Part shown: positions 3 through 39,212 of the stretch, one piece after another | Numbering within the stretch: the first letter of the stretch is position 1 | Layout of the letters: every line of letters starts with the position of its first letter | Assembly: GCA_964187785.1 (NCBI GenBank) | Contig: OZ076409.1 | Coordinates: 10,604,001 to 10,668,000, forward strand | Direction: 5' to 3' | Origin: Amphiscolops sp. MND2022 | Taxonomy: Eukaryota | Length of the DNA: 64,000 nucleotides | The notes under the pieces: generated by a model | What the model was told of the DNA's origin: nothing | What the model saw: the letters and a program-made list of their open reading frames with translations, nothing else | The model's database searches: none | Translations under genes and position numbers: made by a program

Positions 3-3000
3 TTGCAGTTCAGACAGAGATCCTCTTCGCGTATTTCCTCCTCGCAGGACTGGCTTTGGTTCTGCGCTGGCAGTTTCATGGGTCCTAGGAGCCGTGTTTG
101 AGCCACCAGGGCCATTTTCTGCGGCTACCGGAGTTGATGCTTCTGGCGAATGTTCTTGCGCTGCATTGGTTGAGCCGCTAACATTGGCAGAACTTGTGGT
201 TGATGTGGAGATTGGGATCTGTACATCCAGTCTACTAGCATTAAACAAGTGCGGTAGATCCAGCGGTCTATTGCGGGTGGCAATGGGTCGTTTCTGTTTC
301 GCACTGAGTTTCGGGCGTAGATCAGGTCGGCCCCAGAGCCCGCAGGCTCTGGACCAGTTGTCCCTATTCGCATGCTCTATGATTTGCCTAGAGGCTTCCC
401 ATTCGGGTCCGAGGGGATCACTTAGCAATTCCATGACGTGGTAGCAAGTCTCCGCTGGCATGTCGCTTCCCATAGTAACCCTCGCCTCTGGATTCCAAAC
501 AGGCATTGTCAGTGGGGGGATGATTAAACCTCTTAGGCGTCCTTGGCGCTCCTCCAGGGTTCTTGACATCCACACGCCAAGTTTGTAGTGGTCGCGATAG
601 GCATACTGCTCATCAAAGCCCTTCTCGACCATACTGATTGGCTTGGCCCGGATATAACCGATGGGTCCTCGCCAGTACCTGGCTGGAAGCTTAATCATTT
701 GGAAATTGTACTCCTGATTCGTGTGACCGCCCATGGTTTGCACACACTCGGTCACGTACTTCCTGAGGTGTGCGAAACTCCAATTGAATCGCTGTGGGAT
801 TCCGAGGTGGTCTAGGGGAGAATTATACCAATTCACCGGGCCGTATTCGCGAGGTAAAGGGCACGCCTTCTTTGTTCGGGCTTTGAGAATACCGGCCAGG
901 TTTTCGTCTTGCTGTGTCTCATTCTTTATTGTGGTATACATACGTGGTACTAGCAGAAACAGCCCACGTTCAAGCATCTGTTGATAGTTGTGTGGTTTTA
1001 CGTTCTTCAGATAAGTTAGGATGGATACCGTTAACGTCTCCGAGGCCAGTCTCAGAGGCTTGGTGGGGTATCGGAGTATCCCGGTTGGGCCAAATATCGG
1101 AGTTAGCACGGGTGCTAACACCGGTATAAGATCTTCGACTTCAGCCAAAGTGAAATCTGCCAGCTGGTTGGGTGTCAAAAATCCAGCTACCTCGGTCACT
1201 AGCTGACGTCCATCATATAACGGTTGGTGCTTATCCACCCCCACGAAGAGTCCCGAGGCAAAGACCAGACTGCAATACATCCAGTGATACAATGAAGTTG
1301 TCATACGCTCCAGGTGAGCGGGATAATCCTGAGCGTCTTTCCGTTGCAACAGCTTGGCTAGGGCGGTTAGACCTGAGATATTCCCTCGTGCAATCACCAG
1401 ATATGAAAATAGCCATTCCAGATTACACTCGGTAACCAGGTTAGTCAATATCATCATTGGGCCAGCTACAAAGCGTTTCTGCCCGAAAGTGAGCATCAGT
1501 GCAAAGAGTTCGTTCACCTGCACGGTACCGATAATCTCGCTGATTTCGATCAACCAACTCTCCTCTAAATCGAACTCGACTCGAATAACATCGGGACTCC
1601 AACCCAATCCCAAACAGATGGCAAACTGGTCGGTTGACATCCCAAGCTCTTTTGCAATGTCTGCTACGGTGGTAGTTTGTAGCCGCTGGTACCAGGCGTC
1701 GTAGGTGCTGCTGAAGGCTTGGATTTCAGCCTGAGTTTCGCTCGTCAATTTTGCAGCAATGTATTTCATTCCCACTGATAATTGATCGACTGTGAGGTCC
1801 TTGGCAAATTGAACTCGCGGGATGGCTCGTTCTACTTCTCGGTCGCTGGGGACTTTGCTCATTGTGGCAGTGACTTCTGCAAGATCGGTTTTGATACAAG
1901 TCTTTCCACCGGATGAGCGCGCGCGCTCTATCCAGTTATTCAGGCGGATTGCCTCGCATTCGGCCGTACTGGGCTCTGGGACTCGCCTTTCTCCGTCCTT
2001 GTTGAACACCAACAAGCCCATGCGAGTGCCGTGATCAAAGTAAATGGCATCGTCGATTGTCAGCTGCGCGTTCCCTGTTTTCTCTACTGACTGTAGCACT
2101 TTAGACACTGAGGCAATGTACCCCATGTAGGACAGCCAGGAGGGGCGAAAGTCATTGGAGCTAATCCGCATATTGGGCGCGCAGATCGCAAAGTCTATTT
2201 CTCTGCACTTGCAAACTTCTGTCACCATGTATATGAATCTCTGCAAGGCGGGGGGCCATTGGCAAAAACCTGGGGGTGTCACGAACAGGGCTGGCACCTT
2301 GAGTTTGTCTTTCAAGATGTTTTGGGCTTTCTCCATGGCTCGGGCCATGTTCAATGCTGCATTGCGTACCGTTGTTCGCTGAGCCGGACTTGGATTCATA
2401 ATCTCAACGTTCGCGATCTGGGCCATTAGTCCTTCACAGGCCATGTGATCGAAAACGTTGCTGATGATCACTCTACGTGGAGGTGGCTCTTTGAAGGTTC
2501 CTGTCATCTCAGGGTCAAACATGGTGACCAACACTTCGGCCATCTCGGGAATACGTGACAGCGGTAGAGTAAAAACCATCACGTCTGACAACACGTTGTC
2601 GATGGGGACATTCTTGAGGAATGTTGAGTCAATAAGTAAGGCGAAGCGCGCACGCTGCAACCTTTCTTTTGGCATTGGTAGCTGGGCTTCGAGATCACGG
2701 GCGTACCGTGGGTTGATCTCAAAGGTCTCTCCAGCGTTGAGGAAATATCGATCGGCGAATTGCCCACGAAGGTCAACGTTGAGGGCATCTAGGTAATTGT
2801 CATCCACGTTTGGCAGCATATTCATTGCCTTTCCTAGCCATGGCGGCTCATTGGTAGGAGTGTGGTCTGGGCGGATTGGACGATTCATGAATACGGGTAC
2901 ATTTGCCTTCTTCAGTTTCGCGTGCTCTTCGTCATTTGGAGGACACATGTTTTTCTCAAATAGCCATTCGGGCGATACTATAACTGCCGATTCCCAGATA

Positions 3001-4319
3001 CGTCGGGAATCCTTGGTGACCAATGTGCCCTTTGTGTTCTGCATGGGACTCAGGTACGTCGGCTGTTTCGTAAAGGTCCTCTTAGTTGGATGTTGAATCG
3101 CCTGTTTCCGGAGTGGGGTTCCAGTTGGACCACTGTTGGTCACTTTCAACCCTGGGTAATCACCCATTATGTCCTTGACAGTTCGCTGGGATACAGGGGT
3201 GCCTTGATAACCCACAGTTTGCTCCGATTGTGGCTGTCCTGACGTGGAGGGCTTAGGAGTCGCTCGTTGAGCCAGCGACTCGCGTGTTGTAGACTGCGTG
3301 GATGGTGGTTGCGGCAGTCCTTGTTGCTCGCCTGTCACGTCCGGTTGTGATTGGGGTGAAGGAAGCACGCATGCTTCCGACACTTTTGACTTCGTTTGGT
3401 CTGGCGCTTTGGAGGTTGTGGCCTTCTCGTTGGAAATCTTTTTGTCGGGTGGTGGCTTGCTCGAGGGGCTGTCACGGGCAGTCAATGGTTGTTGAGTCTT
3501 CTTTGTTGGGGAGGGGTCGTTGCGCTTTCTGGAGGCAGGGCGGCTCTCTCCTCCCCCCTTTTGAGAAGAGCGGGAAGGCGAACGACTGCGTTCCACAGTC
3601 ACGGTGCGAGAGTGTCCTGGCTGTTCAGACTGAGGATTGATGTGGGGAATAGTGATGACACCTTGACGTGTTTCAGTTGAAGTCGCATTGTCGTTACGAA
3701 TAGTGACAGTGGGCAGAGCAATTCGACGTAGCTCTGGCCAACACTGTTCCATGGATCGCATGAAGTCATCGTAATTGGGATTGGCAGCCACTGCTTGTAG
3801 CGCTGAAATGACTGCTTGCTCCGCCATAGATTGATTGGGCAGGCTAGGCACCATAGGAGCAGGAGTGCGCGCGCGCACTACTGCTTGTGGTGTTGGTACA
3901 GGAGGTGGTGGTGGAGGTGGAGGCGGGCAAGAAGGGATCTGTAAAGGTCTAGTCTGGTGGACTCCGCCATTCGCAAGACTATACGAGATCGCCGCACGAT
4001 CATCTGTGAAGTGATGCGTAAGATCATGGCCGTGCCACACTCCATCTTGGTACGTCATGGATCGTTGAAATCCAGGAAACCCTGAGGTAATAGATATCGT
4101 TAGCATTGGGGCTTGCAATTGTGATTCCATCTGGGCAATTATTGCTGCTACCCCGGCCACTGCAGCTGGCGACAGACCTTGGTCGAGTCTGTCTCGAATA
4201 AAGGCAATTTGTGGGGTGCGTTGGACACGCGCAGTGTCATAGACGCGTTGCCCCAAGGCAGGAGAGTTGTCTGTAGACCTCGGCGGGACGTTGTTGCTTC
4301 TATCATTATCTTGGTTCAT
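3..4319 (-). CDS. Element A ORF2, >1439 aa, 3'-partial; Pro-rich N-terminus, SGNH/GDSL-fold-like segment, HTH-like segment; function unknown
   Basis: ATG at 4319 (MNQDNDRSNNVPPRS...). Hand translation of ~3880-4319 and 3-2760 found no stop; the track lists no terminated ORF from this ATG, which implies the frame is open to the window edge. Pyrimidine-rich acceptor ctctttcAG ends at 4330. Confidence 0.88.
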   Translation of the reverse strand, partial: MNQDNDRSNNVPPRSTDNSPALGQRVYDTARVQRTPQIAFIRDRLDQGLSPAAVAGVAAIIAQMESQLQAPMLTISITSGFPGFQRSMTYQDGVWHGHDLTHHFTDDRAAISYSLANGGVHQTRPLQIPSCPPPPPPPPPVPTPQAVVRARTPAPMVPSLPNQSMAEQAVISALQAVAANPNYDDFMRSMEQCWPELRRIALPTVTIRNDNATSTETRQGVITIPHINPQSEQPGHSRTVTVERSRSPSRSSQKGGGESRPASRKRNDPSPTKKTQQPLTARDSPSSKPPPDKKISNEKATTSKAPDQTKSKVSEACVLPSPQSQPDVTGEQQGLPQPPSTQSTTRESLAQRATPKPSTSGQPQSEQTVGYQGTPVSQRTVKDIMGDYPGLKVTNSGPTGTPLRKQAIQHPTKRTFTKQPTYLSPMQNTKGTLVTKDSRRIWESAVIVSPEWLFEKNMCPPNDEEHAKLKKANVPVFMNRPIRPDHTPTNEPPWLGKAMNMLPNVDDNYLDALNVDLRGQFADRYFLNAGETFEINPRYARDLEAQLPMPKERLQRARFALLIDSTFLKNVPIDNVLSDVMVFTLPLSRIPEMAEVLVTMFDPEMTGTFKEPPPRRVIISNVFDHMACEGLMAQIANVEIMNPSPAQRTTVRNAALNMARAMEKAQNILKDKLKVPALFVTPPGFCQWPPALQRFIYMVTEVCKCREIDFAICAPNMRISSNDFRPSWLSYMGYIASVSKVLQSVEKTGNAQLTIDDAIYFDHGTRMGLLVFNKDGERRVPEPSTAECEAIRLNNWIERARSSGGKTCIKTDLAEVTATMSKVPSDREVERAIPRVQFAKDLTVDQLSVGMKYIAAKLTSETQAEIQAFSSTYDAWYQRLQTTTVADIAKELGMSTDQFAICLGLGWSPDVIRVEFDLEESWLIEISEIIGTVQVNELFALMLTFGQKRFVAGPMMILTNLVTECNLEWLFSYLVIARGNISGLTALAKLLQRKDAQDYPAHLERMTTSLYHWMYCSLVFASGLFVGVDKHQPLYDGRQLVTEVAGFLTPNQLADFTLAEVEDLIPVLAPVLTPIFGPTGILRYPTKPLRLASETLTVSILTYLKNVKPHNYQQMLERGLFLLVPRMYTTIKNETQQDENLAGILKARTKKACPLPREYGPVNWYNSPLDHLGIPQRFNWSFAHLRKYVTECVQTMGGHTNQEYNFQMIKLPARYWRGPIGYIRAKPISMVEKGFDEQYAYRDHYKLGVWMSRTLEERQGRLRGLIIPPLTMPVWNPEARVTMGSDMPAETCYHVMELLSDPLGPEWEASRQIIEHANRDNWSRACGLWGRPDLRPKLSAKQKRPIATRNRPLDLPHLFNASRLDVQIPISTSTTSSANVSGSTNAAQEHSPEASTPVAAENGPGGSNTAPRTHETASAEPKPVLRGGNTRRGSLSELQ

Positions 4320-4549
4320 GACGACAGTTCTGAAAGAGCGTAGGTCGATTGTAGCACACTTGATAGTAGGGTAACACCATAGGTCATTTAAGGGTAATAC
4401 CAGGGAAAGTAATAGAATGTTACACATTAACATTAAAGCAAAAGATAACGTAATAGTCTCAAATAAACTTCGGATCGATTCACTAAACTTAATCGAGCGG
4501 ACAAAAAAAAAACGAAAAACAAAAAAAAGAAAGCGGACAAACGAAAGTT

Positions 4550-7500
4550 TTACGGAAAGCTAGCGACGCTTGCAATAGATACGTAAACGCGATCGTGAAG
4601 AACGACGGTCAGGGGGGTGTCGGCGAATACGTCCATCAAACAGGCATAAAAATCAAAAAGATTACGTATTGGGCGTTCAGGATCAACGATGGCAAAGTGT
4701 ACTTCTATCGCCTCCAAGCGCTCGAGTAACGTTTTCAAATGATCAAGACATCCAAAAAGAATATCAGCGAGCATAGGGCAGCGAGGTGTAGCTCGTGTGA
4801 TTAAAAGGTGGATAGTCTGAGGATGGCCGTCTATCAAAGACGTGGGTAGCGTTACAATATTGCCAACCTCCGGTCGAAGTTGAAAGATTGCATCTGCACC
4901 ATGCTCACGAATGACGTAACGAAGAGCGGCAGAACTAGTTTCCAGATTTGCGGGACAACATAAAACGATATGATGGGGAGTCTGCAGGAAGTCCGTATTG
5001 GCATACTGCACATAGTCAACCAATTGAGGTCTCGCGGCTCCATGGTACACTAACTCTCGTCCGGGGTCCTTGGAAAGAGCATCGTCACATGCATTCGGGA
5101 GGAGGCCCTTGATTGCGCCCAAATCTTGCCATACAGATCGCGGCAATGATTGATTATCAATGTTAGCCCTGGACCATGTATCCAGTGCGTGCAGGGCCGA
5201 TTGGAGGGATACAGGACTAGGAAATGAGTGTGTCCATTCGTCCAGGAATCTGATTCGTGAGAAATTTGATAAAACTGCTATAATAAGTTCCAGCCACCAT
5301 TCAAACTTAATTTTACCACGATATAGGTCTATCGTGTGGAAACAAGTGATTTTATCAGGAGAGGCCATCGTCCGCAAACTCTCCAGACAGGTGTTCAAGT
5401 TAGTGGGATGAACCAAGTCGGATGCTTGTTTGGCCGTAACTAGTAGCCACCAGTTGCTTGTAGGCTGATAAACGTCTCCTGGTTTTGCTGTGACGTTGTA
5501 TTTGTCGTACAAGAGGTCAGCAGGAATACAGCGTATCATTTGGATAGGCTCTCGCTCATAGTTGAAAGGACCAAAAGCAATATTTGTAGGCAAAGGGGGA
5601 ACAGTGATGGGTAAGGTGAACTCCAAACCAACAAGATCATAGGTCCACTCCTTGAACCTTGGGCACGGAGCCCTTGCTATCGTAGAATCTTTCATTTTGG
5701 ATAGGATATAGTCCACGGGATATGGAGTGTCACTGCGTTGTAGCCCAGTGTAGGTTTTCTCGGCTCGAATAACCAAACGGTCAACCATTCCGCTCGGAAG
5801 TGGTTTCTCCTGTTCACGTGCTAGTAGGACTCCCTGGGATTCGATTGGGAAGCCCGCGTGGACCATGTAGTTACATTCGCAGTTTCGTAGGCCACATGTT
5901 CCGCAACGATATCTGGGAATACGATTGCGTCGCAGTCCATAATGAGCGTTGGTCGATTCTGGTGGTGCTGCCTGATCTGAGGTAACCGCCGCGCTAGGGG
6001 CAGAAGAGTCAGTGTCCATTGATGGAGTGTTACGAATATGGGTAGGAGTGTTAGGTCTGGCGTGCGTTGTACGAGGAGGTCTACCTCTGGGACGGCCTCT
6101 TTTGCGAGTGCCTCTAATAGCACCTCTCCGTTGGTGACCACGTGGTAGCGAGGCTCGCGGCCTTGCTCTGCCTGGCGGACGTCCCCGGGGTCCACGCCCT
6201 CTAGGAGCATTGGGGAGCTTCGTGGTAGTAGCTGCATTATTGTTGATGGGATTTGTTACAGGGGGAATTGATCCCTTTTCGCTATTGGTCGTTGGTGTGT
6301 CGGCACCGTCGTCGTCCAGGGTTGGGTTGAGGTCATTGTCATCGATTAGGGGCCAAATGGGAAAGTTACTCAACATATCCGTAAGAGATGGATTTGTCAA
6401 TAATGGGGCGGATGTACCGGTCAAAGAAGTGGCGGCACTTTCGGTGGGTACGTGGATATTAGGATTCGGGGCGACATCTAATGCGTCTGGTACTGCTTCA
6501 TTCTCTGAAAATAGAGCCTCCATAGCAGGTAGTGGTGATATTGGCATTTCGGGAATAGGCGCAGGCTCGTCTACTTGTGATGGCAAGATGACACTTTCGT
6601 CAGGATTTGTTTGAGCACTCGATAGGAGTACATCAGAACGTTCATCGTCAGACTCAGTCGAAGAGTAGCCAAATTGTTGATAATGTAGGCGGCTGCCACC
6701 TGCGCGCATGTGTGTGCGTAACCGTGTGTCCATCCAATGTCTTTGTCGAGAAGGCAAAGAGGCATCACTGGCTTCCGAAATTGGTTCCTCTGCACGGTAA
6801 GAAGGTTGTGAAGCATCGTCTCTCACCTCCTCATGGGATTGTTCTGGATCAGGGTCCATGATAATAGCAACCTCGCCGTTATGCGCAGGAACAGCTGCCC
6901 ATTCTGTTGGACCACCATGATGCGGTTTCAATCGTTCGAAATGCACTTTCTGACCAGTGTCAAGTATGTAAACGCGTCCCTCTTGTAGCACTCGTGCTAC
7001 CTTGTGAGGACCACGCCACGCTCTCATCAATTTGGGAGATCCCTTTTGAGGAATGTATCGGCAGAATACCCAAACAGGTTCGCCCACTTCGTAGGCCTTA
7101 GCACGAATTGCTCTGTCGTACTTCAATTTTTGTCGTTGTTGGGCTTGATGCGTGTTGCGACGGACTAAGTCATGAATCTCTTGTTGTCGAGCCAGCACAT
7201 GTTCCACATAGGCTTCGTGTGATTCGAATGACTGAGTTGCAAATTCCGGATACAAAAAAGTCAGGGGTATAGCTTTTTCCATGCCTCTGGTCAGCATATA
7301 CGGGGAAAATCCAGTAGTGGCATGACGTGTGGAGTTGTATGCACCCATAACTTCATCTAGGTACTGATCCCAGTCACGCATTCGTCTAGAGCAGAATACA
7401 CGCAGTAGGGTGAGTAGCGTTCGGTTTTGTCGTTCTACCAACCCTTGAGTCCTGGGGTGGCCAGCAGTTGAGGTTACTTTGGTCACTTGGGCTGCTTTCA

Positions 7501-10500
7501 TAAACTCAGTAGATACTGCCGCGGTGAAATTGGGAGCATTGTCTGACTGCATCCTCGTTGGCGTTCCATGGCGGGCAAACCACTTCTGCAACAACAACTT
7601 TGAAGTGGTCGCTGCATCGTACTCATCGTGGTTACATGGCACAGCTTCTGCGAGCTTAGAGAAATGATCGATAATAACCAATATCCCTGTGTTACCATCA
7701 TCAGAGGGACAAATTTTCATGTGGTCATATTGGACTAGCTCGTTGAAATAACCGCTTTGGATATTTTTCAAGTGAAAGCGTACATCACCAGGCTTGTCGC
7801 GTACTTGTTGACAAGTGATACATTGACTGACGTATTGTCCAATGGTGCGGCGGATGCCTGGCCAAGTGTGGCGCTCTTGAATTCTGGCCAAGACTTTCGC
7901 GATGCCCTGATGTCCCATCGCGTCGTGGGCCTTGAATAGTATCTCATGTTGATACAATTGTGGCATCACTATCATACAGGGGCGTTCATGCAAAGCTCTT
8001 TGAGTTTTGGAGTATTTTACACACAAAATCCCGTTGGCGTTTATCAGTAGGAGGTTCTTCTTCTGTTTGTGGTAGTTTTTGGCGAAGGTGCGCACATTTT
8101 CCGGAAAGACATCATCATGATGATAATGATTATCTATTGATTCTTGCATTACCAATTTCTTGATGGCCAATATATGGACGTCACGGTTTTGTGCTAGTAG
8201 TAGATCCTTCAATCCATGGACTGTGTTAGCGTGTTCATGCAGTTCCATTGATATGCTGTTTACCACAAACGCGGCTTGTTTTACGTGCTCTGGTGCAGTG
8301 CTAGTTGCTTGCTTTTCCATTAGTGGGTAAGTGGTTCTTGATGGTACGTTAGCAGCATGCGTGGGGAGTAGATAGTCTCGTTGATATTCCTCGGTCAGTT
8401 CTAACCAATCCTCAGGATATTCTGGATAAAGTTCGGCGGGCAGTGTCAACTCTGGTTTTGGCAATGTAGGTAGAGGCGCTCTCATGGCTTCCTCGCGTAT
8501 GGTTGCATTTCGTTTGCTTCCTCCGCTCTTTCGCGAGGGAGCGGCAACTGTGGTCTCGGGTGAACTTTGGCTACCCAACCTCTGCAAGTGTGCAGGCAAT
8601 TCTGGGTGATTTGGTATCACGCGTCCGTGGACGTCGAACCATGGGGCTAGCGGGAGTTTGTTATATTCCTCCTGTGACAGGAAATCCCATTTGTCTGCAA
8701 TTGCGGGTAAGCCTTTTAGTTGCTTTTCGTGTTTTTTGTAATCATTTGTTCGTTTGCTAAGACCATCAGCATTTCGATGTTGCGTTCTGGGTCGATGCTC
8801 AATGCTGAAGTGATATTTTTCAAGAGCCATAATCCATCGACCGATAATCGCCTGATCCATCGAATATGTTTTTAGCCAGGATAGGGCCTGATTATCTACC
8901 CTCAGTGTGAACTTTCGTGGACAGAGGTAACTGTGGTTTTTCAAGATGAAATAGTATGCAGCATACATTTCCAATTTTGGGGCTCCATACTTTGCTTGCG
9001 TAGCAGTTAATTTTTTGCTTCCGAATACAATCGGTCGCAGTTTGCGACTCTCAGGTGGTCCTTGCCATTGGTGCAGAATACCCGATATAGCTACACCACT
9101 AGCATCCGTGTCGAGAACAAATTCGCCTTCAGTGTCAGGTTGCGCCAGAGCGGTGGCTTCCATTAGTGCCACTTTGATGCTGTTGAAGGCTCGCTGCTGC
9201 TCCTCCCCCCATAAAAATGAAGAGGCTCCTCCCGTTATCGCGTGTAAAGGGGCAACTAGTTTTGCATGCCATGGGATAAAATCCCGATAGTAGTTGGCAA
9301 AACCCAAGAAACTTTGCAATTCAGTTTTGGTTCGCGGGATATCCCATTCTTTCAGCTTGGTGACAGCTTTTGGATCTGGCTTGATACCATCTGCGGATAC
9401 GACCCGGCCCAAATATTTGATCTCCGATTTCATGAAGTCACACTTGGAGACTCTCATTTTGAACCCGGCCTCACGCAGGCATTGGAATACTTCGCGTAGT
9501 CTTTCCATGTGATCCTCGATGGTCTCGGTAGCAATCACAATGTCATCGATGTAGGCCATAACCATACTTCCTTCACGGTTCACTATTCTTTGTAGCGCTC
9601 GCGCTATTGCCCGTTGAAATGTTGCTGATGCGTTACACATACCAAAAGGCATACGCCGCCACTCAAATAACCCAAGTTCACAAGCGAAGGCAGTCTTTTG
9701 ACGATCTGCTTTTCGGACAGGAATTTGCCAGAATGCCCATGCCAAGTCAATACTAGTATAGATTTTGGCTTTGCCCAATCTGGATAGACTTTCATCGATA
9801 CGTGGCAAGGGATAAGCGTCTTTGATGGTCACTTCATTAAGTGGTCGAAAGTCACAACAGAATCGCAATTCACCACTCTTCTTTTTGACCATGACGATTC
9901 CACTCGCCCAAGGGGATAGAGAAGGCTGTATCATTCCCAAAGCTAGCAGGTCACGGACTTCTTGGTTTGCACGTTCTGCCTTGTCAGGCGACATTCGTCT
10001 TGCACCTTCACGGTGGGGTACAGCCCCTGGCTCTACTTCCACCGGGTGCTTGGCGATTTTACACTTACCAATATCGGCTTTGAATTTCATAAACAAATCA
10101 TCAAATTCATTCAAAAGTTTACTAAGCGTGTCGCTGGCGGTCGATCCCCACAAACCGCGCACTTCGTCGAGTTGTGCTTCCGGGCCCGGTATCGGAGCCA
10201 TTAACGCCGGATCGGTTCGTTTTTTTACTTCGCGCTCGGACAAGCCTAGTTCTGACGGTTCGGTAGAGGACAAAAACTCAAATTCAGATGAAGAACTATA
10301 TTCAGAAGAAGACTCAAGGTTCATCTGTTCGTAAACTTTACAAACATAATTTGCATTTGACTGCTGAGTTTCACTTGATTGTCCGGGGACAATTTGGGGG
10401 ATGGCTTTGTGAACCATCGTTACGGGTACCGCGGTTCCTAAAAGGGTGCCCTTTTTAATCCGCTGCACGTTGCTGGTAAGATTTCCTAAACTGACGTAAA

Positions 10501-13500
10501 GGAAGCCAGTCTCCCCCACGGTCGCCACGGTGTCCTCTAAAAAGATGTCGTTTTTTAACATTCGGTTAGGTGTTTGGAAATTGATTAGCACGGTTCGAAA
10601 TATGAAAGGTTCTAAGTTGTCTACAAGCAGTTTAGCGCGTAGTATTGCGCGTTCAAAAGGTTGCAACACTACGTCCTGTGCAATCGCTACCGACGAATTG
10701 AGTGATTCGTTACTTACTTGTGTGTGGGCATGGTACCACACTGGTTCAGACGGAGCTCGGACAATGACCTTCATCGCGGTTAGATCCACCAAGACTTGAT
10801 AAGCTCTTAGGAAGTTTCTGCCCAGGAGGAAGTCTTCCACTCCCATGGCGTCGTCAACTACCACGAAGTTAGTTTCCAGTTCGTAGCCTCCCAATTGGAA
10901 CTTGACTTTCTCCGCTAGACCAAAAGTTTTGATCGTTTTCCCATTCGCGGCATACAAGTCAATACCATAAGGTCGTAAGAGTGTCCCAGTGCGCACAGCG
11001 ACTCGATTGTAGGCTGAGAAGGTGAGGATGGACACTCCTGATCCAGTGTCTATCAGACCACGTAATGGCACGGGAGCAGCATCGGGAACCACGAATGAAA
11101 CTACGAGCGACACACGCTCATCGATTCTCGCTTCACCAGTTGGTTCTTGAGCATCAATGTTATAGCAGCGCAGCTCCTGTGGTCCCAAGCAGATTCCAGG
11201 AGGAAATGCGTCAGTAATGATAGTGGCACCAAAATGCATGTCAACACCATCTATGCAAACTTTGACTGGAATCGGGGAATAGGCATGATACGTCGAAGTG
11301 ACACCTTTTACCTGCCATTCTTCCGGTTGGGGCAGGGTCAATTGTCGGCAATTCTCGTTTGCGGTTATCTCGTCTATCAGGGCGTCTATGGTGAGTTCTG
11401 GGCGGGTTTCCCTCTCAATCGCCAATAGTAATCGGACAGACATGATAGTGCGTCCCGAGGGATCAAAAGTAGTTGGCTCCGGGTTCGTCTGGATTTGAAT
11501 CTTGCCACATGTGACGGTAAGGGGCGTTGCCACGTGAGCGGTTTCAGCAGGACGAAGCATGAGTACCAGTTCATTGTCACTCATTGTTTGAGAAGCAGGT
11601 GGCTGTTCAGCCCAGAGGCTGTAGGCCAAATCCTCATGTACTGGAACATTTTGGCATTGTGATACAGAGTGTTCAGTCATGCCACAATTTACACAGAATA
11701 CGGGGCCAGAACATGCAGAGGCCACATTATTCTCACATAAGTTTACTCGCTCTTCAGGTGCAGCGCGAGCCGCTGGTTTCCTTGCTAGGTCTCGACTTGG
11801 GCATTCCCTTGCAAAGTGACCTGGTAGCCCACAGTTGAAGCATGCTCCTTGGGGAACCACTCTCGCTGGTTGCTGTTGTGCAGGAGCCTGTTTTACTGAT
11901 GCAGGGGCTGGTGGAGCCATTTGGGGTTTAGACTCTCGTTGTCCTTGGTTAGGAGGTAGTACGTTTTGCGGTAGGCCTGGTGCTGGATGAACCAATTTTC
12001 CTGGCACGAAAGGATGAGGCCTCGATCTCATTGCATACCTTGGGTCGTAAGGTTTTGACGTGTTTGGGCGATGCCGTTGCAATTGTCTCGTGGTGAACCT
12101 TAGGGATTCTACAGTTGGTGGTTCGGTCAGATATGCCTCTGCAGCGTATACCACGGCCAACTCTTGTCGCAGCGTCGGATCATTGACACCATCTATAAAA
12201 CGTTGCAGGATCTCATAACGACGTGTAGTGATAGGCTCATCTGGGAAACCTTGGGTGCGCAGACCTTCTAATGCGTCCAGGAATTGCATCCAATCTTCTT
12301 TTTCCTGTTGGACACGAGACATGAAGGTTTGTCTTACGTGCATGCGATTCCCACCGGTTCCAAATCTGCTGGCCAAGAGAGAGAATACCTTGTCGGGCTC
12401 GTCTCGTTCAGGTTCAGATTTGTTGATAATATAATTTCTCGCCTCTCCTTCCAGGTGGTCGATGATAGCCCAGGCTCTGTCGATTTTTGGGGATTTTGCA
12501 TGCACCCTTTCTAGAAATCGCTTCATCACTGGGAGCCATCCATCGACAGAACCATCTTTAGTGCCTTTGTATACCGTAGGGCGCACCCTAGTTTGGTCTC
12601 GATTAGCAATCAGCGGTGCTAGTTCCTTGGACATGGCTTTAGATATTGCCTCGGTAAACCTGAGTTGCTCCGGTGATATAGGCGTTTCTTCGCTGATAGC
12701 TGGTGGCGGGATACTGCTGCCTCGCGTTGAGTTGACAGAGTCATCGGTGTTCTCGGGGAGAGTCACTTCTCGGCGTCGAGTACTGCTAGCGCATGGGTTG
12801 CCCGAGGGTAACTCGTCGTTCGCGGTTTGGAATTCTGCAGCTGATTCTCCCAAAGTTGCATTTGCTGTTTGGAAGGTGCTAGTGACTTCGGTTAGCATGT
12901 TTGCGCGTGTGGGCTCTCGCAGGTCGCTAATACCCATGCTTGAAGTGTCGATAGTTATCACCTCGCATGTTGGTTCTTTCTTGTGAGTTTTGGTTGTGGG
13001 TGGAATATTTTTTGTTGATACCGCAGATGGGATAAATTTCGTCGATGTTGACGCAGCTTCTCCATTTGAGACCAGAGTTTGTGGCAAGGGCGCGTACCTA
13101 GCCAAGTGTTGTTTAGAGCCAGATGGGTTTGTCGAAATCGTCACACTCTCTTTTGGTTTGAGGGAGACGCTTTTCATGGGTTTTGGCAGTGATATATCAG
13201 TGTCTTGCAGCAATTCTCTGATAGTGTTGCTTACTGGTGCGGGTTGAGGTTGGATATTTTTCAACATGGTGCCCATTGCTTGTATCTGTGAACATACCTC
13301 TTGCAGTTGAGCTTCCATGCGCACCTCTCTTTCGGTCACCATGTCTTTTATTTCGGCCATTCGATAACCCATGGCATCCATTCGAGCTGCCTGAATTTCA
13401 TGTCCTTGCGCTTGTCGCTCAGTCGAAGTTCGCAGTTCAGTTTGTACGGCTTCTATCTCTTCCATTATTGACTGATGCTCTCTGTCGCACCTTGCTTTAC

Positions 13501-14332
13501 GCTCAGACAGTTGTGAAGCAGCTTGCTTCACGCCTATCTGGGCATCTAACAGAGCTTTGCGTGCTTTCGCTGCTTCATGTACGGCTCGATATGCTGAAGA
13601 TCGGGCAGATGCAGCTTTTGATGAAGGTGAGGATGAGCGCGAGTCGCCATGAGGTCCTGTAGTGCCAGTCTGTGCTAGTAAGGCTGGAGGCCGTACTTGC
13701 TTACCCTTCCCAGATGCTCGGGGGGCCGTAGCTTCTTGAAGACGTGTCCTGGCATAGTTCATACCCCCGACATAGGACATTTGTTGCAATATCTCTGCCG
13801 TGTTCGCAGTGCTCTCGCTGGCCACGCTGGGAGCTTTGAGTTGTCCAGTGGCATTCAAGCAACTCATTTCAGTTTCTTCCTCAGCGTTTGTCCTGTTGGA
13901 GTTGGGCCATGTTCCTGCTTCGTCAGTACCGAAAGGTGTGACGGCTACTTTGGTGAGTTCTTGTAACCATTTGGACGTGTGCGCCTGACTTCCTGTTTCG
14001 TCTGCTGAACCTCCGATATCATCGGTAGTCTTGGCAACCGGCTTGGCTTGATATTCCTCCGATGCGTCGTCTGACATAGGGTCTGAAAAATCGGGTTCCA
14101 TAATGAAACTGTCATCAGTTGGCCAATCTTCCTCCTTGGGATCTGAGGTCAAGTCTGATATTGCACTGAGGTTTGTCTCGCACCCCGTTGGATCTGGTGT
14201 CTTTGATGTTTCAGTACATCGCGAGATGTCCTTCCTCCCCCCTCTTGAATGATTAGAGCGTCGCTGGGTGTTCGCGCGGCCTAATGTTCTCGTTATGGAA
14301 ATCCAAAGGTTACGCAAACTGTTGGGTTTCAT
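4550..14332 (-). CDS. gag-pol: Gag-Pol polyprotein, 3260 aa: capsid, two Zn knuckles, protease, RT, RNase H, integrase, C-terminal AT-hooks and macrodomain-like region
   Basis: CFNCGLPGHFARECP and CVNCGMTEHSVSQC knuckles; LIDTGSG protease; YIDD RT; TDASG RNase H; H-x4-H...CxxC zinc motif, DDE core and WRGPH of integrase; RGRP AT-hook cores. Confidence 0.97.
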   Translation of the reverse strand: MKPNSLRNLWISITRTLGRANTQRRSNHSRGGRKDISRCTETSKTPDPTGCETNLSAISDLTSDPKEEDWPTDDSFIMEPDFSDPMSDDASEEYQAKPVAKTTDDIGGSADETGSQAHTSKWLQELTKVAVTPFGTDEAGTWPNSNRTNAEEETEMSCLNATGQLKAPSVASESTANTAEILQQMSYVGGMNYARTRLQEATAPRASGKGKQVRPPALLAQTGTTGPHGDSRSSSPSSKAASARSSAYRAVHEAAKARKALLDAQIGVKQAASQLSERKARCDREHQSIMEEIEAVQTELRTSTERQAQGHEIQAARMDAMGYRMAEIKDMVTEREVRMEAQLQEVCSQIQAMGTMLKNIQPQPAPVSNTIRELLQDTDISLPKPMKSVSLKPKESVTISTNPSGSKQHLARYAPLPQTLVSNGEAASTSTKFIPSAVSTKNIPPTTKTHKKEPTCEVITIDTSSMGISDLREPTRANMLTEVTSTFQTANATLGESAAEFQTANDELPSGNPCASSTRRREVTLPENTDDSVNSTRGSSIPPPAISEETPISPEQLRFTEAISKAMSKELAPLIANRDQTRVRPTVYKGTKDGSVDGWLPVMKRFLERVHAKSPKIDRAWAIIDHLEGEARNYIINKSEPERDEPDKVFSLLASRFGTGGNRMHVRQTFMSRVQQEKEDWMQFLDALEGLRTQGFPDEPITTRRYEILQRFIDGVNDPTLRQELAVVYAAEAYLTEPPTVESLRFTTRQLQRHRPNTSKPYDPRYAMRSRPHPFVPGKLVHPAPGLPQNVLPPNQGQRESKPQMAPPAPASVKQAPAQQQPARVVPQGACFNCGLPGHFARECPSRDLARKPAARAAPEERVNLCENNVASACSGPVFCVNCGMTEHSVSQCQNVPVHEDLAYSLWAEQPPASQTMSDNELVLMLRPAETAHVATPLTVTCGKIQIQTNPEPTTFDPSGRTIMSVRLLLAIERETRPELTIDALIDEITANENCRQLTLPQPEEWQVKGVTSTYHAYSPIPVKVCIDGVDMHFGATIITDAFPPGICLGPQELRCYNIDAQEPTGEARIDERVSLVVSFVVPDAAPVPLRGLIDTGSGVSILTFSAYNRVAVRTGTLLRPYGIDLYAANGKTIKTFGLAEKVKFQLGGYELETNFVVVDDAMGVEDFLLGRNFLRAYQVLVDLTAMKVIVRAPSEPVWYHAHTQVSNESLNSSVAIAQDVVLQPFERAILRAKLLVDNLEPFIFRTVLINFQTPNRMLKNDIFLEDTVATVGETGFLYVSLGNLTSNVQRIKKGTLLGTAVPVTMVHKAIPQIVPGQSSETQQSNANYVCKVYEQMNLESSSEYSSSSEFEFLSSTEPSELGLSEREVKKRTDPALMAPIPGPEAQLDEVRGLWGSTASDTLSKLLNEFDDLFMKFKADIGKCKIAKHPVEVEPGAVPHREGARRMSPDKAERANQEVRDLLALGMIQPSLSPWASGIVMVKKKSGELRFCCDFRPLNEVTIKDAYPLPRIDESLSRLGKAKIYTSIDLAWAFWQIPVRKADRQKTAFACELGLFEWRRMPFGMCNASATFQRAIARALQRIVNREGSMVMAYIDDIVIATETIEDHMERLREVFQCLREAGFKMRVSKCDFMKSEIKYLGRVVSADGIKPDPKAVTKLKEWDIPRTKTELQSFLGFANYYRDFIPWHAKLVAPLHAITGGASSFLWGEEQQRAFNSIKVALMEATALAQPDTEGEFVLDTDASGVAISGILHQWQGPPESRKLRPIVFGSKKLTATQAKYGAPKLEMYAAYYFILKNHSYLCPRKFTLRVDNQALSWLKTYSMDQAIIGRWIMALEKYHFSIEHRPRTQHRNADGLSKRTNDYKKHEKQLKGLPAIADKWDFLSQEEYNKLPLAPWFDVHGRVIPNHPELPAHLQRLGSQSSPETTVAAPSRKSGGSKRNATIREEAMRAPLPTLPKPELTLPAELYPEYPEDWLELTEEYQRDYLLPTHAANVPSRTTYPLMEKQATSTAPEHVKQAAFVVNSISMELHEHANTVHGLKDLLLAQNRDVHILAIKKLVMQESIDNHYHHDDVFPENVRTFAKNYHKQKKNLLLINANGILCVKYSKTQRALHERPCMIVMPQLYQHEILFKAHDAMGHQGIAKVLARIQERHTWPGIRRTIGQYVSQCITCQQVRDKPGDVRFHLKNIQSGYFNELVQYDHMKICPSDDGNTGILVIIDHFSKLAEAVPCNHDEYDAATTSKLLLQKWFARHGTPTRMQSDNAPNFTAAVSTEFMKAAQVTKVTSTAGHPRTQGLVERQNRTLLTLLRVFCSRRMRDWDQYLDEVMGAYNSTRHATTGFSPYMLTRGMEKAIPLTFLYPEFATQSFESHEAYVEHVLARQQEIHDLVRRNTHQAQQRQKLKYDRAIRAKAYEVGEPVWVFCRYIPQKGSPKLMRAWRGPHKVARVLQEGRVYILDTGQKVHFERLKPHHGGPTEWAAVPAHNGEVAIIMDPDPEQSHEEVRDDASQPSYRAEEPISEASDASLPSRQRHWMDTRLRTHMRAGGSRLHYQQFGYSSTESDDERSDVLLSSAQTNPDESVILPSQVDEPAPIPEMPISPLPAMEALFSENEAVPDALDVAPNPNIHVPTESAATSLTGTSAPLLTNPSLTDMLSNFPIWPLIDDNDLNPTLDDDGADTPTTNSEKGSIPPVTNPINNNAATTTKLPNAPRGRGPRGRPPGRARPRASLPRGHQRRGAIRGTRKRGRPRGRPPRTTHARPNTPTHIRNTPSMDTDSSAPSAAVTSDQAAPPESTNAHYGLRRNRIPRYRCGTCGLRNCECNYMVHAGFPIESQGVLLAREQEKPLPSGMVDRLVIRAEKTYTGLQRSDTPYPVDYILSKMKDSTIARAPCPRFKEWTYDLVGLEFTLPITVPPLPTNIAFGPFNYEREPIQMIRCIPADLLYDKYNVTAKPGDVYQPTSNWWLLVTAKQASDLVHPTNLNTCLESLRTMASPDKITCFHTIDLYRGKIKFEWWLELIIAVLSNFSRIRFLDEWTHSFPSPVSLQSALHALDTWSRANIDNQSLPRSVWQDLGAIKGLLPNACDDALSKDPGRELVYHGAARPQLVDYVQYANTDFLQTPHHIVLCCPANLETSSAALRYVIREHGADAIFQLRPEVGNIVTLPTSLIDGHPQTIHLLITRATPRCPMLADILFGCLDHLKTLLERLEAIEVHFAIVDPERPIRNLFDFYACLMDVFADTPLTVVLHDRVYVSIASVASFP

Positions 14333-16687
14333 GATTTCGCACGTCTCGAAAAAGTCAAAAATCGATCTAGGGGTCGTACCGGCGTGAAACTTACACAGCG
14401 TGTTGATACCGTGGTGTGGGGCCGGAAACCGTGCGTTTGGGGCTTACGGAATAGCTGATTCGCAAACAATTGGGTTTTTAGACAATTTTTGAGTTTTTTA
14501 AATTTCTTTGGAAATGACTAAGATCCCTCGAACGCAACGTCTAATCGTCGGAAACACTTGAAAATTGGCCACCTGACCTTGTGGTAGGTGTACTACACGA
14601 TAGCAAAATTAAATCCAAGCTAGGGTTTTTATTTCAAGATTTAGGTTGATCCGGACATTCGGTACCTTCAGTCATCAAAATACATCAATTTTCATGCTTA
14701 TTTCGAGATTGTGCTCTACTGAAAAAAGCTGGCGGGCTCAAAATTTGCAAAACAACGTAATATCTGGTACAAATGGTAGAAATGAACTGCAATTCAACCT
14801 CGTTTTTCAATTAAGGTATTCGGATCACTCGGGAAAAATTTGAAAAATCACCCTCTATGCCCAGCTTTTTGAGTGGTTCGTTTTTTCTATTTTCTCACCA
14901 AGTACCGGTTGGATTGACACGAAACTTTGTAGTTACAGCCGATGAGTGTGTGCAATGCCGGTGAGACCATCAAAAGAAAGCGCGGACGCTTATTTGAGGT
15001 TTCGACCTTACTTGGACAACACTCATAAAGAAAAACAATCTTAGGCTACTTTCTTCACAAATTGGCTAAGAGGGTCACCTCAAAAAGTGGTAGGGTTGAA
15101 AAAATGGGATCTACGTGTTGCCCCACTACTCGTAATACTAGAATAAACCCTCGAATAGATGTGCCCGTTAAGTACGAGGCACCGACAGTCCTTCAGTTTT
15201 GGATTATTTCGGTAGTTTTACAGTCCTCTGAAGTTGAAACGTTAGAGCACTTTTCTCAATTTTGGTGAAAGTTACGTTCACCAAATTTTCGGCACTAACG
15301 TTAATTTTGGTGGTGGTTACGAAAATGCAACCACTTTTTGGCTAGGGTTCAGGAATCGATGACCCGACCCTAGCTCAGAGACAGTCCGGTTTTGTGGAAA
15401 ATTGATCAAATTCAGTGCGTTTTTTCACTTTTCTCAGCACTGAATGGGAATTTTTGCATGCGGTTTTCACTATAGATCGTTAAATTTACTGAATAAACTG
15501 AAAATAATAGCCCGGGGGCTATTCTAAGTGTAGAAGTGTTCGTCAAATGTCAAGTTGGGTTTCTTCTAAGAGTACTATAGAAAAACCTTAAAATCACAAT
15601 TTTCGTAACTTTTTTCAAGAAGTAGTGGTTATAATTACCAAAATGAGTATTGTTGGGTACCGGCAGGTGTACCCCAACCTAATTGCAACCATACGGGGAT
15701 GTTTAAAAGCTTTCACACAAGTTCCCCCATAAGTCCAAAGTGCTAAAATGTTCAATCTTTCAAAAACGGGTTTTCTTCCTCACAAAACTTATACTAAGTG
15801 CCTTTTCGGGCAACTTTGAGTACTTCGTCGCGTTTTTTGCGAACTCGTTAGAGTCCTGAGCTACTTTTATTTAATTTCTGCAGGTGTGTGGCTAGCACCA
15901 AGAGCGCTCGCGCTCATGTAGGTGTTTCGCCTCAAAATGGCCAAATTTGGCACTTTTCGTCGAAAATACATGAGGAAACGCACTTTTTTCGCACAAAACT
16001 GGTGCAAAAGCACACACTTAGTTACAGAAGGCTCGTAAAAACATTGGCAAATGGTCGTACACAAAATTTTGAGCAACCCAAAAAAATTTTTTAACCTGAC
16101 TCAAAAATATCATACAACCCGGACTGACGAGTCGTGTCTTCCCGTTCTTTTTGCTCATCACCCAGAACAGCCAGAGACAAGCGGGTTGCACCATTAGACA
16201 CGTCAGCATTTGTAGTACGTCTCCACCAAATTTCATTTCTCTAGGTTGCCTGTACGGGAAATGGGATTGGTGAGTCGTATAACTCGTTTCGGCAGATTGT
16301 AGGATTCCTCTGAGTAAGGGTTATCCTCTTCTCAACACTCACTTCATTGGTCATAAAAAGCTGAAAAAGGCTAGAAAACACCTGTTAACACTTCTAGCAG
16401 CCTCCCAGTGGCTTGCTAGACCAATATTATGAGTGACCCGTTAAGAGGGTAGACTATTTCAATCGTTACCTGTCAACTACTAAAAAAGCATGAAAATCAC
16501 AACATACAGCGCTTTTTTATAAGATTTACCTTTATCCACCGGGATTGAAATCTTCAATGACACACACAGGGTAAAAACGTGGAAAAACTCTGGTTCTCTC
16601 TTCTTTCCATCAGAGTCGGGTCGTACTTGGCGTCAATCACCAGAGGGTCGGCTATTTTAAAACCATTAAGGGAAGCACTTCGAAGCG

Positions 16688-16705
16688 ATCCCTCTGTGGT
16701 CGCCA
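16688..16705 (-). other. Primer-binding site of element A, tRNA-Arg-like
   Basis: Minus strand reads ...GACATCA ttttt TGGCGACCACAGAGGGAT, complementary to a tRNA 3' end ...UCCCUCUGUGGUCGCCA that resembles tRNA-Arg(UCG). Confidence 0.75.
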
Positions 16706-16710
16706 AAAAA

Positions 16711-17397
16711 TGATGTCTCTATGTGACGACAAGCTCTCACCATTGTCGCCGTAACCATAAGAGTTAGAGGAACACATGATATGGGCATTTGCCCGGGACA
16801 GGCGCCCATGACCATGAGCTCATTTTGCCTCTTTCGGGTAAAAACTGTCCCGTCAGAGGAGGATTCCGCTTCTTGTGAAGTGCTCGCCGGCCTGATCCAG
16901 TCTGTAATTGCTATCAGTAGTGCGCATTACGCTTTTTCTTCGAAATCAACACTTAGACAGCCTTTAAAAAATGCAAGTGGTGGAAAGGAAAAATCAAGTT
17001 TTATCGAAGTTACACAGGAGATTGAAATGAGTAGCTCACGAGCTGTTACGACAAGAAAATACGAAAATTACTACATAATTAGCACTTTTGAGGCAGCAAT
17101 TAGCCGGGGACACAAGCACGGATGCTTGGTCAAGCTAATTGACTCATTTTTGGTAATCACAGCGTCTTGTAACGCTTCGCTGAAGAAAGCACTGGTTAGA
17201 ACAAAGTTCAGTCCGTTTTGGCAGAAATTTGAGTCTTTTTCTGATAGTGGCCGTGTTTTTCTGCAATCTTCTCGTTCGGTTGGGGTCTCTTTCGAGTCTC
17301 TTGCTCAAATCCTCTTCAATTCCGTGGACAGGTACTTGAATAAAGACACGCTGCCGTCTGGCGGAATATGACTCTTTAGTAGAGGAGATATAGTCCC
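16711..17397 (-). repeat. Part of the 5' LTR of element A (truncated by gap)
   Basis: Ends in CA on the minus strand 5 nt before the PBS; the partner LTR is outside the window, so the other boundary cannot be checked. Confidence 0.65.
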
Positions 17398-17597
17398 NNN
17401 NNNNNNNNNNNNNNNNNNNNNNNNNNNNNNNNNNNNNNNNNNNNNNNNNNNNNNNNNNNNNNNNNNNNNNNNNNNNNNNNNNNNNNNNNNNNNNNNNNNN
17501 NNNNNNNNNNNNNNNNNNNNNNNNNNNNNNNNNNNNNNNNNNNNNNNNNNNNNNNNNNNNNNNNNNNNNNNNNNNNNNNNNNNNNNNNNNNNNNNNN
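17398..17597. other. Assembly gap (200 N)
   Basis: Run of N; contiguity across it is not guaranteed. Confidence 1.
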
Positions 17598-34437: not shown

Positions 34438-34610
34438 TTTAGGTTTCTTGGAAAGTCCCTAATTATTTTGCCTAAACCTAAATGAAAATCGCAGCTGTGA
34501 CAAAGTTTGAATGAAGTAGCTGTATTATTCAGATCAAACACAATAACTAAACAAGCTGAACAAGATTACATCATAGCGTAATACTTAGCTTGCATAAGAA
34601 GAAGTCAACA
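34438..34610 (-). repeat. 3' LTR of element B
   Basis: Direct repeat of 39213-39385; begins TGTTGAC on the minus strand, just after the purine tract. Confidence 0.9.
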
Positions 34611-34751
34611 CGGCTTCCTTCCTCCAAGACGGAGTCCACATGTAAGGCGGTGTGATCATCAGGTTACACTAGCTTACAACTGCGATTTTTATTGGTACAA
34701 TAAAATTTAACAAAAACGTTTTTTTTTCAAAAAAAGGAAAATTTAAAATGT

Positions 34752-37700: not shown

Positions 37701-38902
37701 TGTTGAAGTGAAGATTGTGACGTTGTCGGTTACTGCTAAGTTGCGGCAGTTGATATTTATGTCTTTGTCTTTGCGGAAACCCAGTCCTAGAATGTTGTCG
37801 TTGACGTCTGGGATGTAGAAGATGAAATTGTAGTTGCGTCGGAGGTAGGGTATGACGATTGTGAGCGTCATTTTTGCGTGCTTTTTGATACGGTCTTGGT
37901 TTACTGTTTTGAGATTCGTTGTTGTCGGCGTGGAGTAATCGGTGTTGACGAGCGTTGATTTGATGATTGATACCATAGATCCAGTGTCGGCGATGAAAGT
38001 AGTCTTCTGTGAGTTGATTTGGGCGGCAAGGCGGATGCAAATAGGATTCCCAATCGTTGCCGCCCACACGAGTGGGGCTATTCGTTTCCCTGTGCGGCGG
38101 GTGATTGTGCGCGAGATGACGGTTCGATATGTGCGGGCTTTGGTCCAGGCCACTTACACCAGGGCCTACAACGTTTGGCGGAGTTAGCGAAAAACAAGTG
38201 GAAGCGGCAAATTTTCGGTCGTTGTCCGGGCGAGAATGGCTGAATATTGTTGTCGGCTGTGCTGTTTCTTGGCGTTAGTTGCGGCTGGCGTGTATAGGAC
38301 GATGACGATGAGTGCTGTATGGCATAAACGTGCGTGTTGTCCTGAAACGTGTCCTTCGAGTAGCTGTATATGGTGTCGGCTAGTTTGGCGAACTTGTCGG
38401 GTGGCAGGTCCTAATATGCGGGAAGTGAGGAACGCGTTGAGATTGGCATGGCTTGCATAAGGTAGTGTTTGATTACATCGTTGTCCATTGTCAGATGACA
38501 TTCTGAAAGCTTGCGCTGGGTGCGCAAGAGGCAAACTGAGGGCTTTTGTCCATCCAGTGAAATCGTTCCTAATGCTTCTTCAATCAGTTCTGTTTTTGAC
38601 TTCTGGTAGACTTGAGTGATGCTCTCCTTGAGGCTGCTGTAATCTTCAATTTCTATTGGCAAGTTGATTGCGACGTCTTCTGGGATTGCTGCGAGGATGT
38701 GGTGATATTTGGTGGTGTCGTTGGTAATTCCAGCCAAGACAAACTGGGATTCCATTTGTCGGAACCAAACATTCGGGTTCCTGCGGTAGAATGGAGGTGG
38801 CTTCATGGTGACTCTGTTGACTGGTGCGTGTTGTAGTTCTGGCTGAGATGAAGTTGAAGTTGTGGTGTTGTCTCCAGATCCAAATTCGATGGTGTTCTGC
38901 AT
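34752..38902 (-). pseudogene. gag-pol: Frameshifted gag-pol of element B (gag 38411-38902, PR 37512-38153, RT/RH 36314-37606, IN 35558-36121 and 34752-35507 with C-terminal PHD finger)
   Basis: ADTGS protease, WADD (mutated YxDD), TDASG, H...CLTC, DIVGP, ERFHRTL, APYTGP motifs, broken over several frames. Confidence 0.92.
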
Positions 38903-39211: not shown

Positions 39212-39212
39212 T

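Follow-up and report, generated by a model that had tools for sequence, protein, structure and literature searches.

What occupies the envelope (env) position of a retrotransposon that seems to carry no envelope gene? This question is raised by a stretch of 64,000 nucleotides from Amphiscolops sp. MND2022 (GenBank assembly GCA_964187785.1, contig OZ076409.1, positions 10,604,001 to 10,668,000 of the forward strand; hereafter the window, to which all coordinates refer). It contains, on its minus strand, a Ty3/Gypsy element of ~19.1–19.2 kb in which a single gag-pol open reading frame (ORF) is followed by a second, very long one, ORF2. As detailed below, ORF2 is a working gene retained throughout a clade of related elements. 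Our preferred account, which is tentative, is that it encodes a conserved, separately encoded accessory protein which is not an envelope, likely translated from a spliced mRNA, and that its predicted SGNH domain is likely a dead binding module which would most probably tether the element's particles, or complexes of its RNA with protein, to host membranes from the cytosolic side.

A long conserved frame after pol

The minus-strand frame is stop-free from 4559 to 3 and, from the ATG at 4319, encodes 1,439 residues inside the window. This agrees with an earlier reading of the DNA made from its letters only (the sequence-only reading), which had described a frame open to the window edge; translation revealed no in-frame stop and the motifs quoted in that reading were all recovered in place. 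Extension into the adjacent genomic DNA, which it had proposed, adds 16 codons and then a stop. ORF2 (3..4319, minus strand, its final 16 codons and stop lying outside the window) is hence 1,455 residues long.

A genome search with the SGNH region of ORF2 gave 3,323 candidates, of which only 125 were scored, a sample biased toward the best copies. These best 125 matches are 98–100% identical, and 101 of them have a frame of at least 1,455 codons (hand count). Together with the low ratios of non-synonymous to synonymous substitution (dN/dS) given below, this count argues that the frame is not there by chance. Besides family A, that of the window copy, the genome contains families A′, C, B, E and D, whose ORF2 core identity is 83, 56, 44, 41 and 28–31%, respectively, for a reverse transcriptase (RT) identity of 99, 92, 92, 89 and 83%. 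ORF2 has diverged roughly in parallel with RT, a pattern that fits vertical co-inheritance. In all families examined (six in the genome) ORF2 occupies the same slot after pol, and at all 16 loci fetched the 10 kb that hold the ORF2 match also contain integrase or pol-tail sequence. Pairs of long terminal repeats (LTRs) are mostly 98.7–100% identical, and the clade is young and abundant.

Two further in-frame ATGs, at 4433 and 4427, lie upstream of 4319 and would add a hydrophobic leader. Position 4319 is regarded as the conserved start because, among the 125 scored copies, at least 30 have a frame of 1,478 codons (hand count), too short for ATGs 4433 and 4427, and because in families B, C and E the frame closes 2–4 codons upstream of their own ATG. 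ATG 4319 also aligns with the first Met of families A′, B and C. A signal peptide starting at ATG 4433 was considered and rejected, since the leader is not conserved across copies or families.

Selection on ORF2 was estimated by Nei–Gojobori counts between native copies. The dN/dS is 0.049 (183 synonymous and 33 non-synonymous changes) and 0.094 in two family A pairs, and 0.083, 0.065 and 0.053 in three family B pairs, while in the same A pairs it is 0.039 and 0.077 for RT–RNase H (RH) and 0.022 and 0.026 for integrase (IN). Along the protein, values are 0.03–0.08 for an N-terminal domain of ~100 residues, 0.09–0.20 for the linker that follows it (0.14–0.20 in the family A pairs) and 0.009–0.10 for the SGNH segment; no segment exceeds ~0.25 between subfamilies. 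Silent sites are saturated in the comparisons of A with A′ and of A with C, and two pairs of near-identical copies gave 0.14 and 0.65, the latter value fitting mutations acquired after insertion. The test across copies suggested in the sequence-only reading has thus revealed purifying selection (0.049–0.094 between subfamilies) and, because these low ratios are comparable to those of RT-RH and IN in the same pairs, ORF2 is a working gene under purifying selection like pol.

When 1.84 billion representatives were searched with a profile, 649 matches were obtained, 150 of them listed. Relatives such as P0288 and P0341 come from other assemblies, as the best match of P0288 in the Amphiscolops genome is only 30% identical, whereas three other queries were found there at 100%. 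P0287, which is labelled bacterial and lies on an 816-nt contig, is probably carried-over host DNA.

The SGNH-like domain and the rest of the protein

The sequence-only reading had noticed in ORF2 echoes of the SGNH/GDSL esterase blocks with altered catalytic Gly and His. Fold searches and residue counts delimit a putative SGNH-like pseudo-esterase domain at residues ~556–770 (2010..2654, minus strand). Two AlphaFold2 models were built, one of residues 424–1350 from 19 sequences (mean predicted local distance difference test score, pLDDT, 40.5; 696 of 927 residues below 50) and one of residues 540–800 from 8 sequences (mean pLDDT 59.6). In both, strands alternate with helices over residues ~575–750. 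When compared by VIA-align with 48,161 chains, SGNH/GDSL esterases ranked top for the first model (Z 7.7, root-mean-square deviation 4.6, 152 residues aligned) as for the second (Z 8.1, 3.3 and 147, respectively), and the top ten rows of the second search are what we take to be SGNH-fold proteins. The OSK domain of Oskar (PDB 5a4a) reached Z 6.5 in the first search.

Several observations weigh against this assignment. Z scores of 7.7–8.1 are middling, in a range that the notes of the tool describe as common for unrelated models, and Rossmann folds of the short-chain dehydrogenase/reductase type come next at Z 6.8 in the second search. Block I has a pLDDT below 50 in both models and strand β1 is not confidently modelled, so that Ser565 is placed in the pocket by the register of the sequence. 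Foldseek (pdb and viral sets) gave no match at E ≤ 0.001, a GDSL lipase appearing at rank 45 and at rank 32. HHalign to the intact GDSL domains of the same genome gave E 0.38, which does not support an origin from these. By sequence, Pfam has no family for ORF2, distant relatives giving only sub-threshold noise, searches of the PDB by sequence or profile gave nothing meaningful, and the ESM Atlas gave no usable match (best 0.76). Moreover, no fold could be assigned to ~1,200 of the 1,455 residues. The structural search that the sequence-only reading had proposed hence gave a divided answer, Foldseek being silent at this threshold and VIA-align favouring SGNH. The domain that this reading proposed stands on the top-ranked folds and on the register of its blocks, at moderate Z scores and with no Foldseek, Pfam or PDB sequence match behind it; on the models, an SGNH fold is probable.

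The active site was examined by residue counts in a 21-sequence alignment reaching down to ~25% identity, with the block table of PMC10792757 as reference (this and the other papers cited here are drawn on in excerpt). The four blocks line up with their counterparts in that table. In block I, D564 and S565 are each present in 16 of 16 sequences, as placed by register. The oxyanion Gly of block II is found in only 1 of 19 (P0341), the remainder having L, C or H. In block III, G-x-N-D is replaced by N-x-x-D and the oxyanion Asn is found in none of 19, its position being held by a hydrophobic residue or Thr; D624 and N621 are invariant (19/19), and N621, two residues before the lost Asn position, could replace the latter. 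In block V, 19 of 20 sequences have Arg (R725) where the catalytic His would stand, 19 of 20 have P726, and only 1 of 20 has Asp as the acid. According to the excerpted text of PMC10792757, the equivalents of Asp564, Asp624 and Pro726 have structural roles. As judged from the alignment, the structural residues and the nucleophile appear to be kept while the base, the acid and the oxyanion residues appear to be lost and, if the fold is indeed SGNH, the domain is very probably a pseudo-enzyme. The alteration of Gly and His noticed earlier was correct, the retained Ser of block I having gone unmentioned.

The remainder of ORF2 comprises several parts. A conserved N-terminal domain (residues 25–125; 3945..4247, minus strand), with a W-x-G-x-D-L-T-H motif and also present in P0341, belongs to no known family and gave no LOTUS match; a likeness to phage tail lysozyme, seen by eye, was rejected as Pfam gave it no support. 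It is followed by a basic linker rich in Pro, Ser, Thr and Gln (residues 126–425; 3045..3944, minus strand; net charge +15, RKR at 264) which aligns poorly between families and which, from its composition, is probably disordered. Downstream of the SGNH-like domain, the model and the alignment predict a large conserved all-helical domain, unassigned to any fold, with many invariant residues (residues ~850–1200; 720..1772, minus strand). It includes the segment that the sequence-only reading had called helix-turn-helix (HTH)-like (residues 884–899; 1623..1670, minus strand). Its shape was recovered as two helices in the model; DNA binding was not supported, since basic residues are absent from the second helix (STDQFAICL) and the searches matched no HTH family. 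The same domain contains a hydrophobic, Pro-kinked 19-mer (residues 1064–1082; 1074..1130, minus strand) followed by R-Y-P, with a 19-residue Kyte–Doolittle hydropathy of 1.7–2.4 in 8 of 8 representatives, a candidate buried helix or membrane-dipping segment. The protein ends in a low-complexity tail. In families A, A′, B and C, this tail retains RR-x-S and terminal R-x-S-S/A-A motifs although it is otherwise unalignable; they are absent in D. These motifs are possible kinase or 14-3-3 sites.

Expression and possible roles of ORF2

A candidate 3′ splice acceptor, made of a pyrimidine tract and CAG (4330..4346, minus strand), is separated by 10 nt from the ATG of ORF2. In 10 of 10 representatives, a pyrimidine run followed by an acceptor-like YAG was found, each time among the three best-scoring AG sites of the interval, at 6–23 nt upstream of the ATG in families A, A′, B, C and E and at 105 nt in four D copies. 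This recurrence suggests that ORF2 may be made from a separate spliced mRNA. In family B, CTAAC is found just upstream of the acceptor-like site, which we take to resemble the branch-point consensus, and in B1 and C a short out-of-frame ATG lies between acceptor and start. No conserved splice donor was picked out, which counts against splicing, and transcription from an internal promoter, whether or not a spliced leader is then added, would be an alternative to cis-splicing.

In the mechanism that we tentatively prefer, ORF2 would be translated from its own spliced mRNA. Catalysis presumably having been lost, a pocket formed by Ser565, Asn621 and Arg725 would hold a negatively charged ligand, for instance the head group of a phospholipid, and the hydrophobic part of the helical domain (residues ~930–1085) would help membrane association. 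Docking on membranes would then serve the assembly or trafficking of particles, without fusion. Membrane docking is favoured because ORF2 has conserved hydrophobic helices and because the SGNH domain of another retroelement, ZfL2-1, binds anionic phospholipids and liposomes even when its active site is mutated (PMC3905857). Both the ligand and the membrane location are inferred by analogy, which weighs against this mechanism.

A possible, if rather unlikely, alternative is a regulator of the Rev or CERV type, the spliced ORF2 product binding the unspliced RNA of ~18 kb through a pseudo-SGNH domain, as in OSK, for its export or protection. The acceptor-like sites, as they imply splicing, would create an export problem, which in Cer1 is met by CERV, a spliced accessory protein required for genomic RNA export (PMC10309623), and OSK is a non-catalytic, RNA-binding SGNH domain (PMC10792757) which scored Z 6.5 here. 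The basic linker with its RKR and the conserved structured block of the 5′ leader (see below) would also fit such a role, as would the RRxS motifs at the protein end in A, A′, B and C, which we take to be of the basic-kinase type. However, family D retains ORF2, yet neither the leader block nor the RKR nor the RRxS tail was found in it; OSK ranked no better than other SGNH rows and was absent among the best 50 rows of the second search; and the charge of the SGNH domain is near neutral (+2).

Somewhat less likely still is an anti-silencing or counter-defence scaffold, in which ORF2 would bind a host defence protein or a modified ligand alongside the macrodomain-like tail of pol. A young and abundant clade and a large intracellular protein with short linear motifs would be consistent with it, as would this tail, whose likeness to macrodomains was seen by eye and is unconfirmed by Pfam or PDB profile. 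However, the host partner is purely hypothetical, and purifying selection throughout ORF2, with no segment above a dN/dS of ~0.25, gives no sign of an arms race.

It is doubtful that ORF2 is still an enzyme, of a non-canonical kind in which Ser565 would act with Arg725, Asn621 and Asp624 in acyl transfer or slow hydrolysis. The constancy of Ser565 and Asp564 (16/16) over ~25% identity and of Arg725 (19/20) would imply a working site. Nevertheless, the general base, the acid and both oxyanion residues of the excerpted PMC10792757 are missing, and Asp564, Asp624 and Pro726 are explained there by structure.

As for an envelope, the sequence-only reading had seen no env features and no N-terminal signal peptide. 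By hydropathy, the latter point was confirmed in 7 of 7 N-termini (maximum nine-residue Kyte–Doolittle value of no more than 1.37 in the first 35 residues). No alignment column has at least 60% Cys, and no RxK/RR furin site is present in A or A′, nor at any position common to the families. The former claim holds on these three counts and less so for the conserved hydrophobic 19-mer, which contains two conserved prolines and does not lie near the C-terminus, ~370 residues following it. A class I or III fusogen, the match which that reading had named as the mark of an envelope, was not found among the viral and PDB fold rows listed, the model being poor outside the SGNH part; likewise, no fusogen, HTH or LOTUS family was among the matches listed in any search, lists which do not exclude them. 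An unrecognised envelope or fusion protein, to which the env position, the env-like acceptor, the 19-mer and the hydrophobic in-frame leader from ATG 4433 in the window copy would point, is on this evidence and given a leader that is not conserved very improbable.

The element and its place among known systems

The gag-pol ORF (~3,260 residues; 4550..14332, minus strand) encodes a CCHC knuckle, protease (PR), RT, RH, IN, a GRP-rich AT-hook-like stretch and a C-terminal tail. This tail, conserved in all families, is preceded by a Cys cluster and the GRP repeats. By eye, the part following integrase (4553–5560, minus strand) resembles two tandem macrodomains of what we take to be the TARG1 type, a label which neither Pfam nor PDB profile searches confirmed. 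Downstream of ORF2 lie a 3′ untranslated region of ~1 kb, a polypurine tract (PPT) and a 734-nt 3′ LTR with TG..CA ends. The 5′ LTR, also of 734 nt and TG..CA, is visible at 16722..17397 (minus strand). A 200-N assembly gap (17398–17597) covers its start and makes the target-site duplication (TSD) of the window copy unreadable. The primer-binding site (PBS; 16688..16705, minus strand) has 18 nt matching the 3′ end of host tRNA-Arg(UCG) plus CCA and lies 16 nt from the LTR end, this offset being 15–17 nt in every family seen. The tRNA matching the PBS of the clade forms a tandem array with a period of ~173 nt (G000:C9:57537790-57576392 and beyond); its pattern has 256 matches genome-wide and, among the matches listed, nearly all fall in the tandem array.

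In the 5′ leader, a non-coding hairpin block (15010..15480, minus strand) of ~420–470 nt is shared by families A, A′, B, C and E and is 71–79% conserved across families whose silent sites are saturated. It is rich in hairpins (z −3.8), with two-sided change at 11 of 107 pairs (5 sequences), and is a candidate packaging or export element. It was not detected in family D and has no Rfam match. A protein-coding nature was rejected, as the block shows neither codon-phase bias nor a common long frame.

Elsewhere in the window, two other Gypsy elements were seen (34438–39387 and 52199–58854), one decayed, with a PHD-like finger after integrase, and the other with long gag and pol frames. Several plus-strand frames of 190–380 residues (46894–49575) lie inside a 17-kb direct repeat (41432–43609 / 58478–60656) and are antisense to the Gypsy pol at 52199–57310.

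The order PR-RT-RH-IN, a Ty3-like RT, TG..CA LTRs, a tRNA PBS and a PPT place the clade in Ty3/Gypsy (Metaviridae), and the best PDB match is Ty3 RT (E 1.6e-64). The TSD sets it apart. In family A, 10 of 11 LTR pairs and one solo LTR have flanks that agree over 3 bp and no further, a 4-bp match occurring in none of 11. A 3-bp match was found in family B in 5 of 6 script-paired LTR pairs, in two additional pairs recognised in the rows and in a solo LTR (start motifs being missing, 4 of 30 loci were dropped), and in families D and E in 6 of 6 elements, one of them uninformative as it lies inside a microsatellite. According to the excerpted text of PMC12440569, LTR elements other than Troyka have TSDs of 4–6 bp, against 3 bp in this clade, and only Troyka makes 3-bp duplications. 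The clade shares the 3-bp TSD with Troyka, or Kuafuorterviruses (PMC12440569; PMC11673190). In contrast to Troyka as these excerpts describe it, the clade has TG..CA rather than CG..CG termini, LTRs of 711–735 nt (734 in family A) rather than 100–400 nt, an interior of ~17.8 kb rather than at most 7.7 kb, a CX2CX4HX4C rather than CX2CX8-10HX4C knuckle, a GPH motif (WRGPH) in an IN whose GPF/Y motif is lacking in Troyka, YIDD rather than [IVL]ADD in RT (PMC11673190), and an extra ORF. Membership in Troyka was rejected on termini, LTR and interior size, knuckle, GPF/Y and RT motif. A 3-bp TSD with TG..CA ends is thus an exception to the Troyka-only rule as given in PMC12440569, and such elements would be overlooked by LTR finders that require a TSD of 4–6 bp.

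Very large Gypsy elements carrying additional domains, such as Burro, have been described (PMC6431247). The closest parallel to ORF2 in position is ORF3 of the bdelloid rotifer Vesta elements, a GDSL/SGNH ORF after pol, in lieu of env and without env features, for which an auxiliary or membrane role has been proposed (PMC5408684). The claim of the sequence-only reading that a large accessory protein other than env is unusual for a Gypsy element was therefore overstated, although ORF2 is indeed such a protein. What is unusual is its size, its His-to-Arg form and the other features of the clade: Vesta ORF3s retain their catalytic residues, whereas ORF2 has Arg for His, lacks the oxyanion Gly and Asn and the acid, and holds its SGNH domain of ~200 residues inside a protein of 1,455. 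The catalytically dead GDSL derivatives in the excerpted text of the same paper occur in Penelope-like Athena-L elements, not in LTR elements (PMC5408684). In the Amphiscolops genome itself, the integrase of another Gypsy family is directly followed by an intact SGNH esterase (GDS, GTND, DGIH), which in some copies is in frame with it, and other repeated intact SGNH ORFs exist, followed at two loci by a 433-residue ORF with a signal-peptide-like beginning. Oskar is a scaffold with a disordered linker. Its OSK domain resembles that of ORF2 in being a non-catalytic SGNH fold, here predicted, within a larger scaffold, but OSK has lost its Ser (Asp instead) whereas ORF2 retains Ser and loses His (PMC10792757). 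The ORF1p esterase of CR1/L2/RTEX long interspersed nuclear elements (ZfL2-1) is likewise an SGNH domain borne by a retroelement, but one that is non-LTR, upstream of pol, endowed with an active triad and a coiled-coil dimer, and without detected sequence link to ORF2 (PMC3905857). With CERV of Cer1, ORF2 shares being a non-env accessory protein of a Gypsy-class element, with a spliced mRNA that is established for CERV and suggested here; this analogy is functional only (PMC10309623).

No report of the clade, of an LTR element with a His-to-Arg SGNH ORF or of Gypsy elements combining TG..CA ends with a 3-bp TSD was found in the literature consulted, which comprised neither Repbase nor subscription journals nor supplements, where the clade may be catalogued. 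The full anatomy of the element, the selection on ORF2, its likely spliced expression and the 3-bp TSDs with TG..CA ends are what is new here. A bolder proposal, which we consider unlikely, is that these 19-kb elements form a Gypsy lineage not described before, in which 3-bp duplication by the integrase would have arisen independently of Troyka. The protein in its env slot would then represent a new class, cytosolic, without signal peptide and engaging membranes: a pseudo-esterase clamping lipids, joined to a hydrophobic helical domain, would carry particles across cells or from one to another with no need of a fusion glycoprotein.

The SGNH domains of retroelements are assumed to work via lipids or membranes, and whether catalysis matters for them is an open question. 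In ORF2, ~1,200 conserved residues match no fold that could be recognised. As native copies of the domain differ so little from one another, its expression and assay should be easy. The Ser/Arg version has been kept clade-wide, across ~25% identity, under selection as strong as that on pol, which argues that binding, and not hydrolysis, can be what the element needs.

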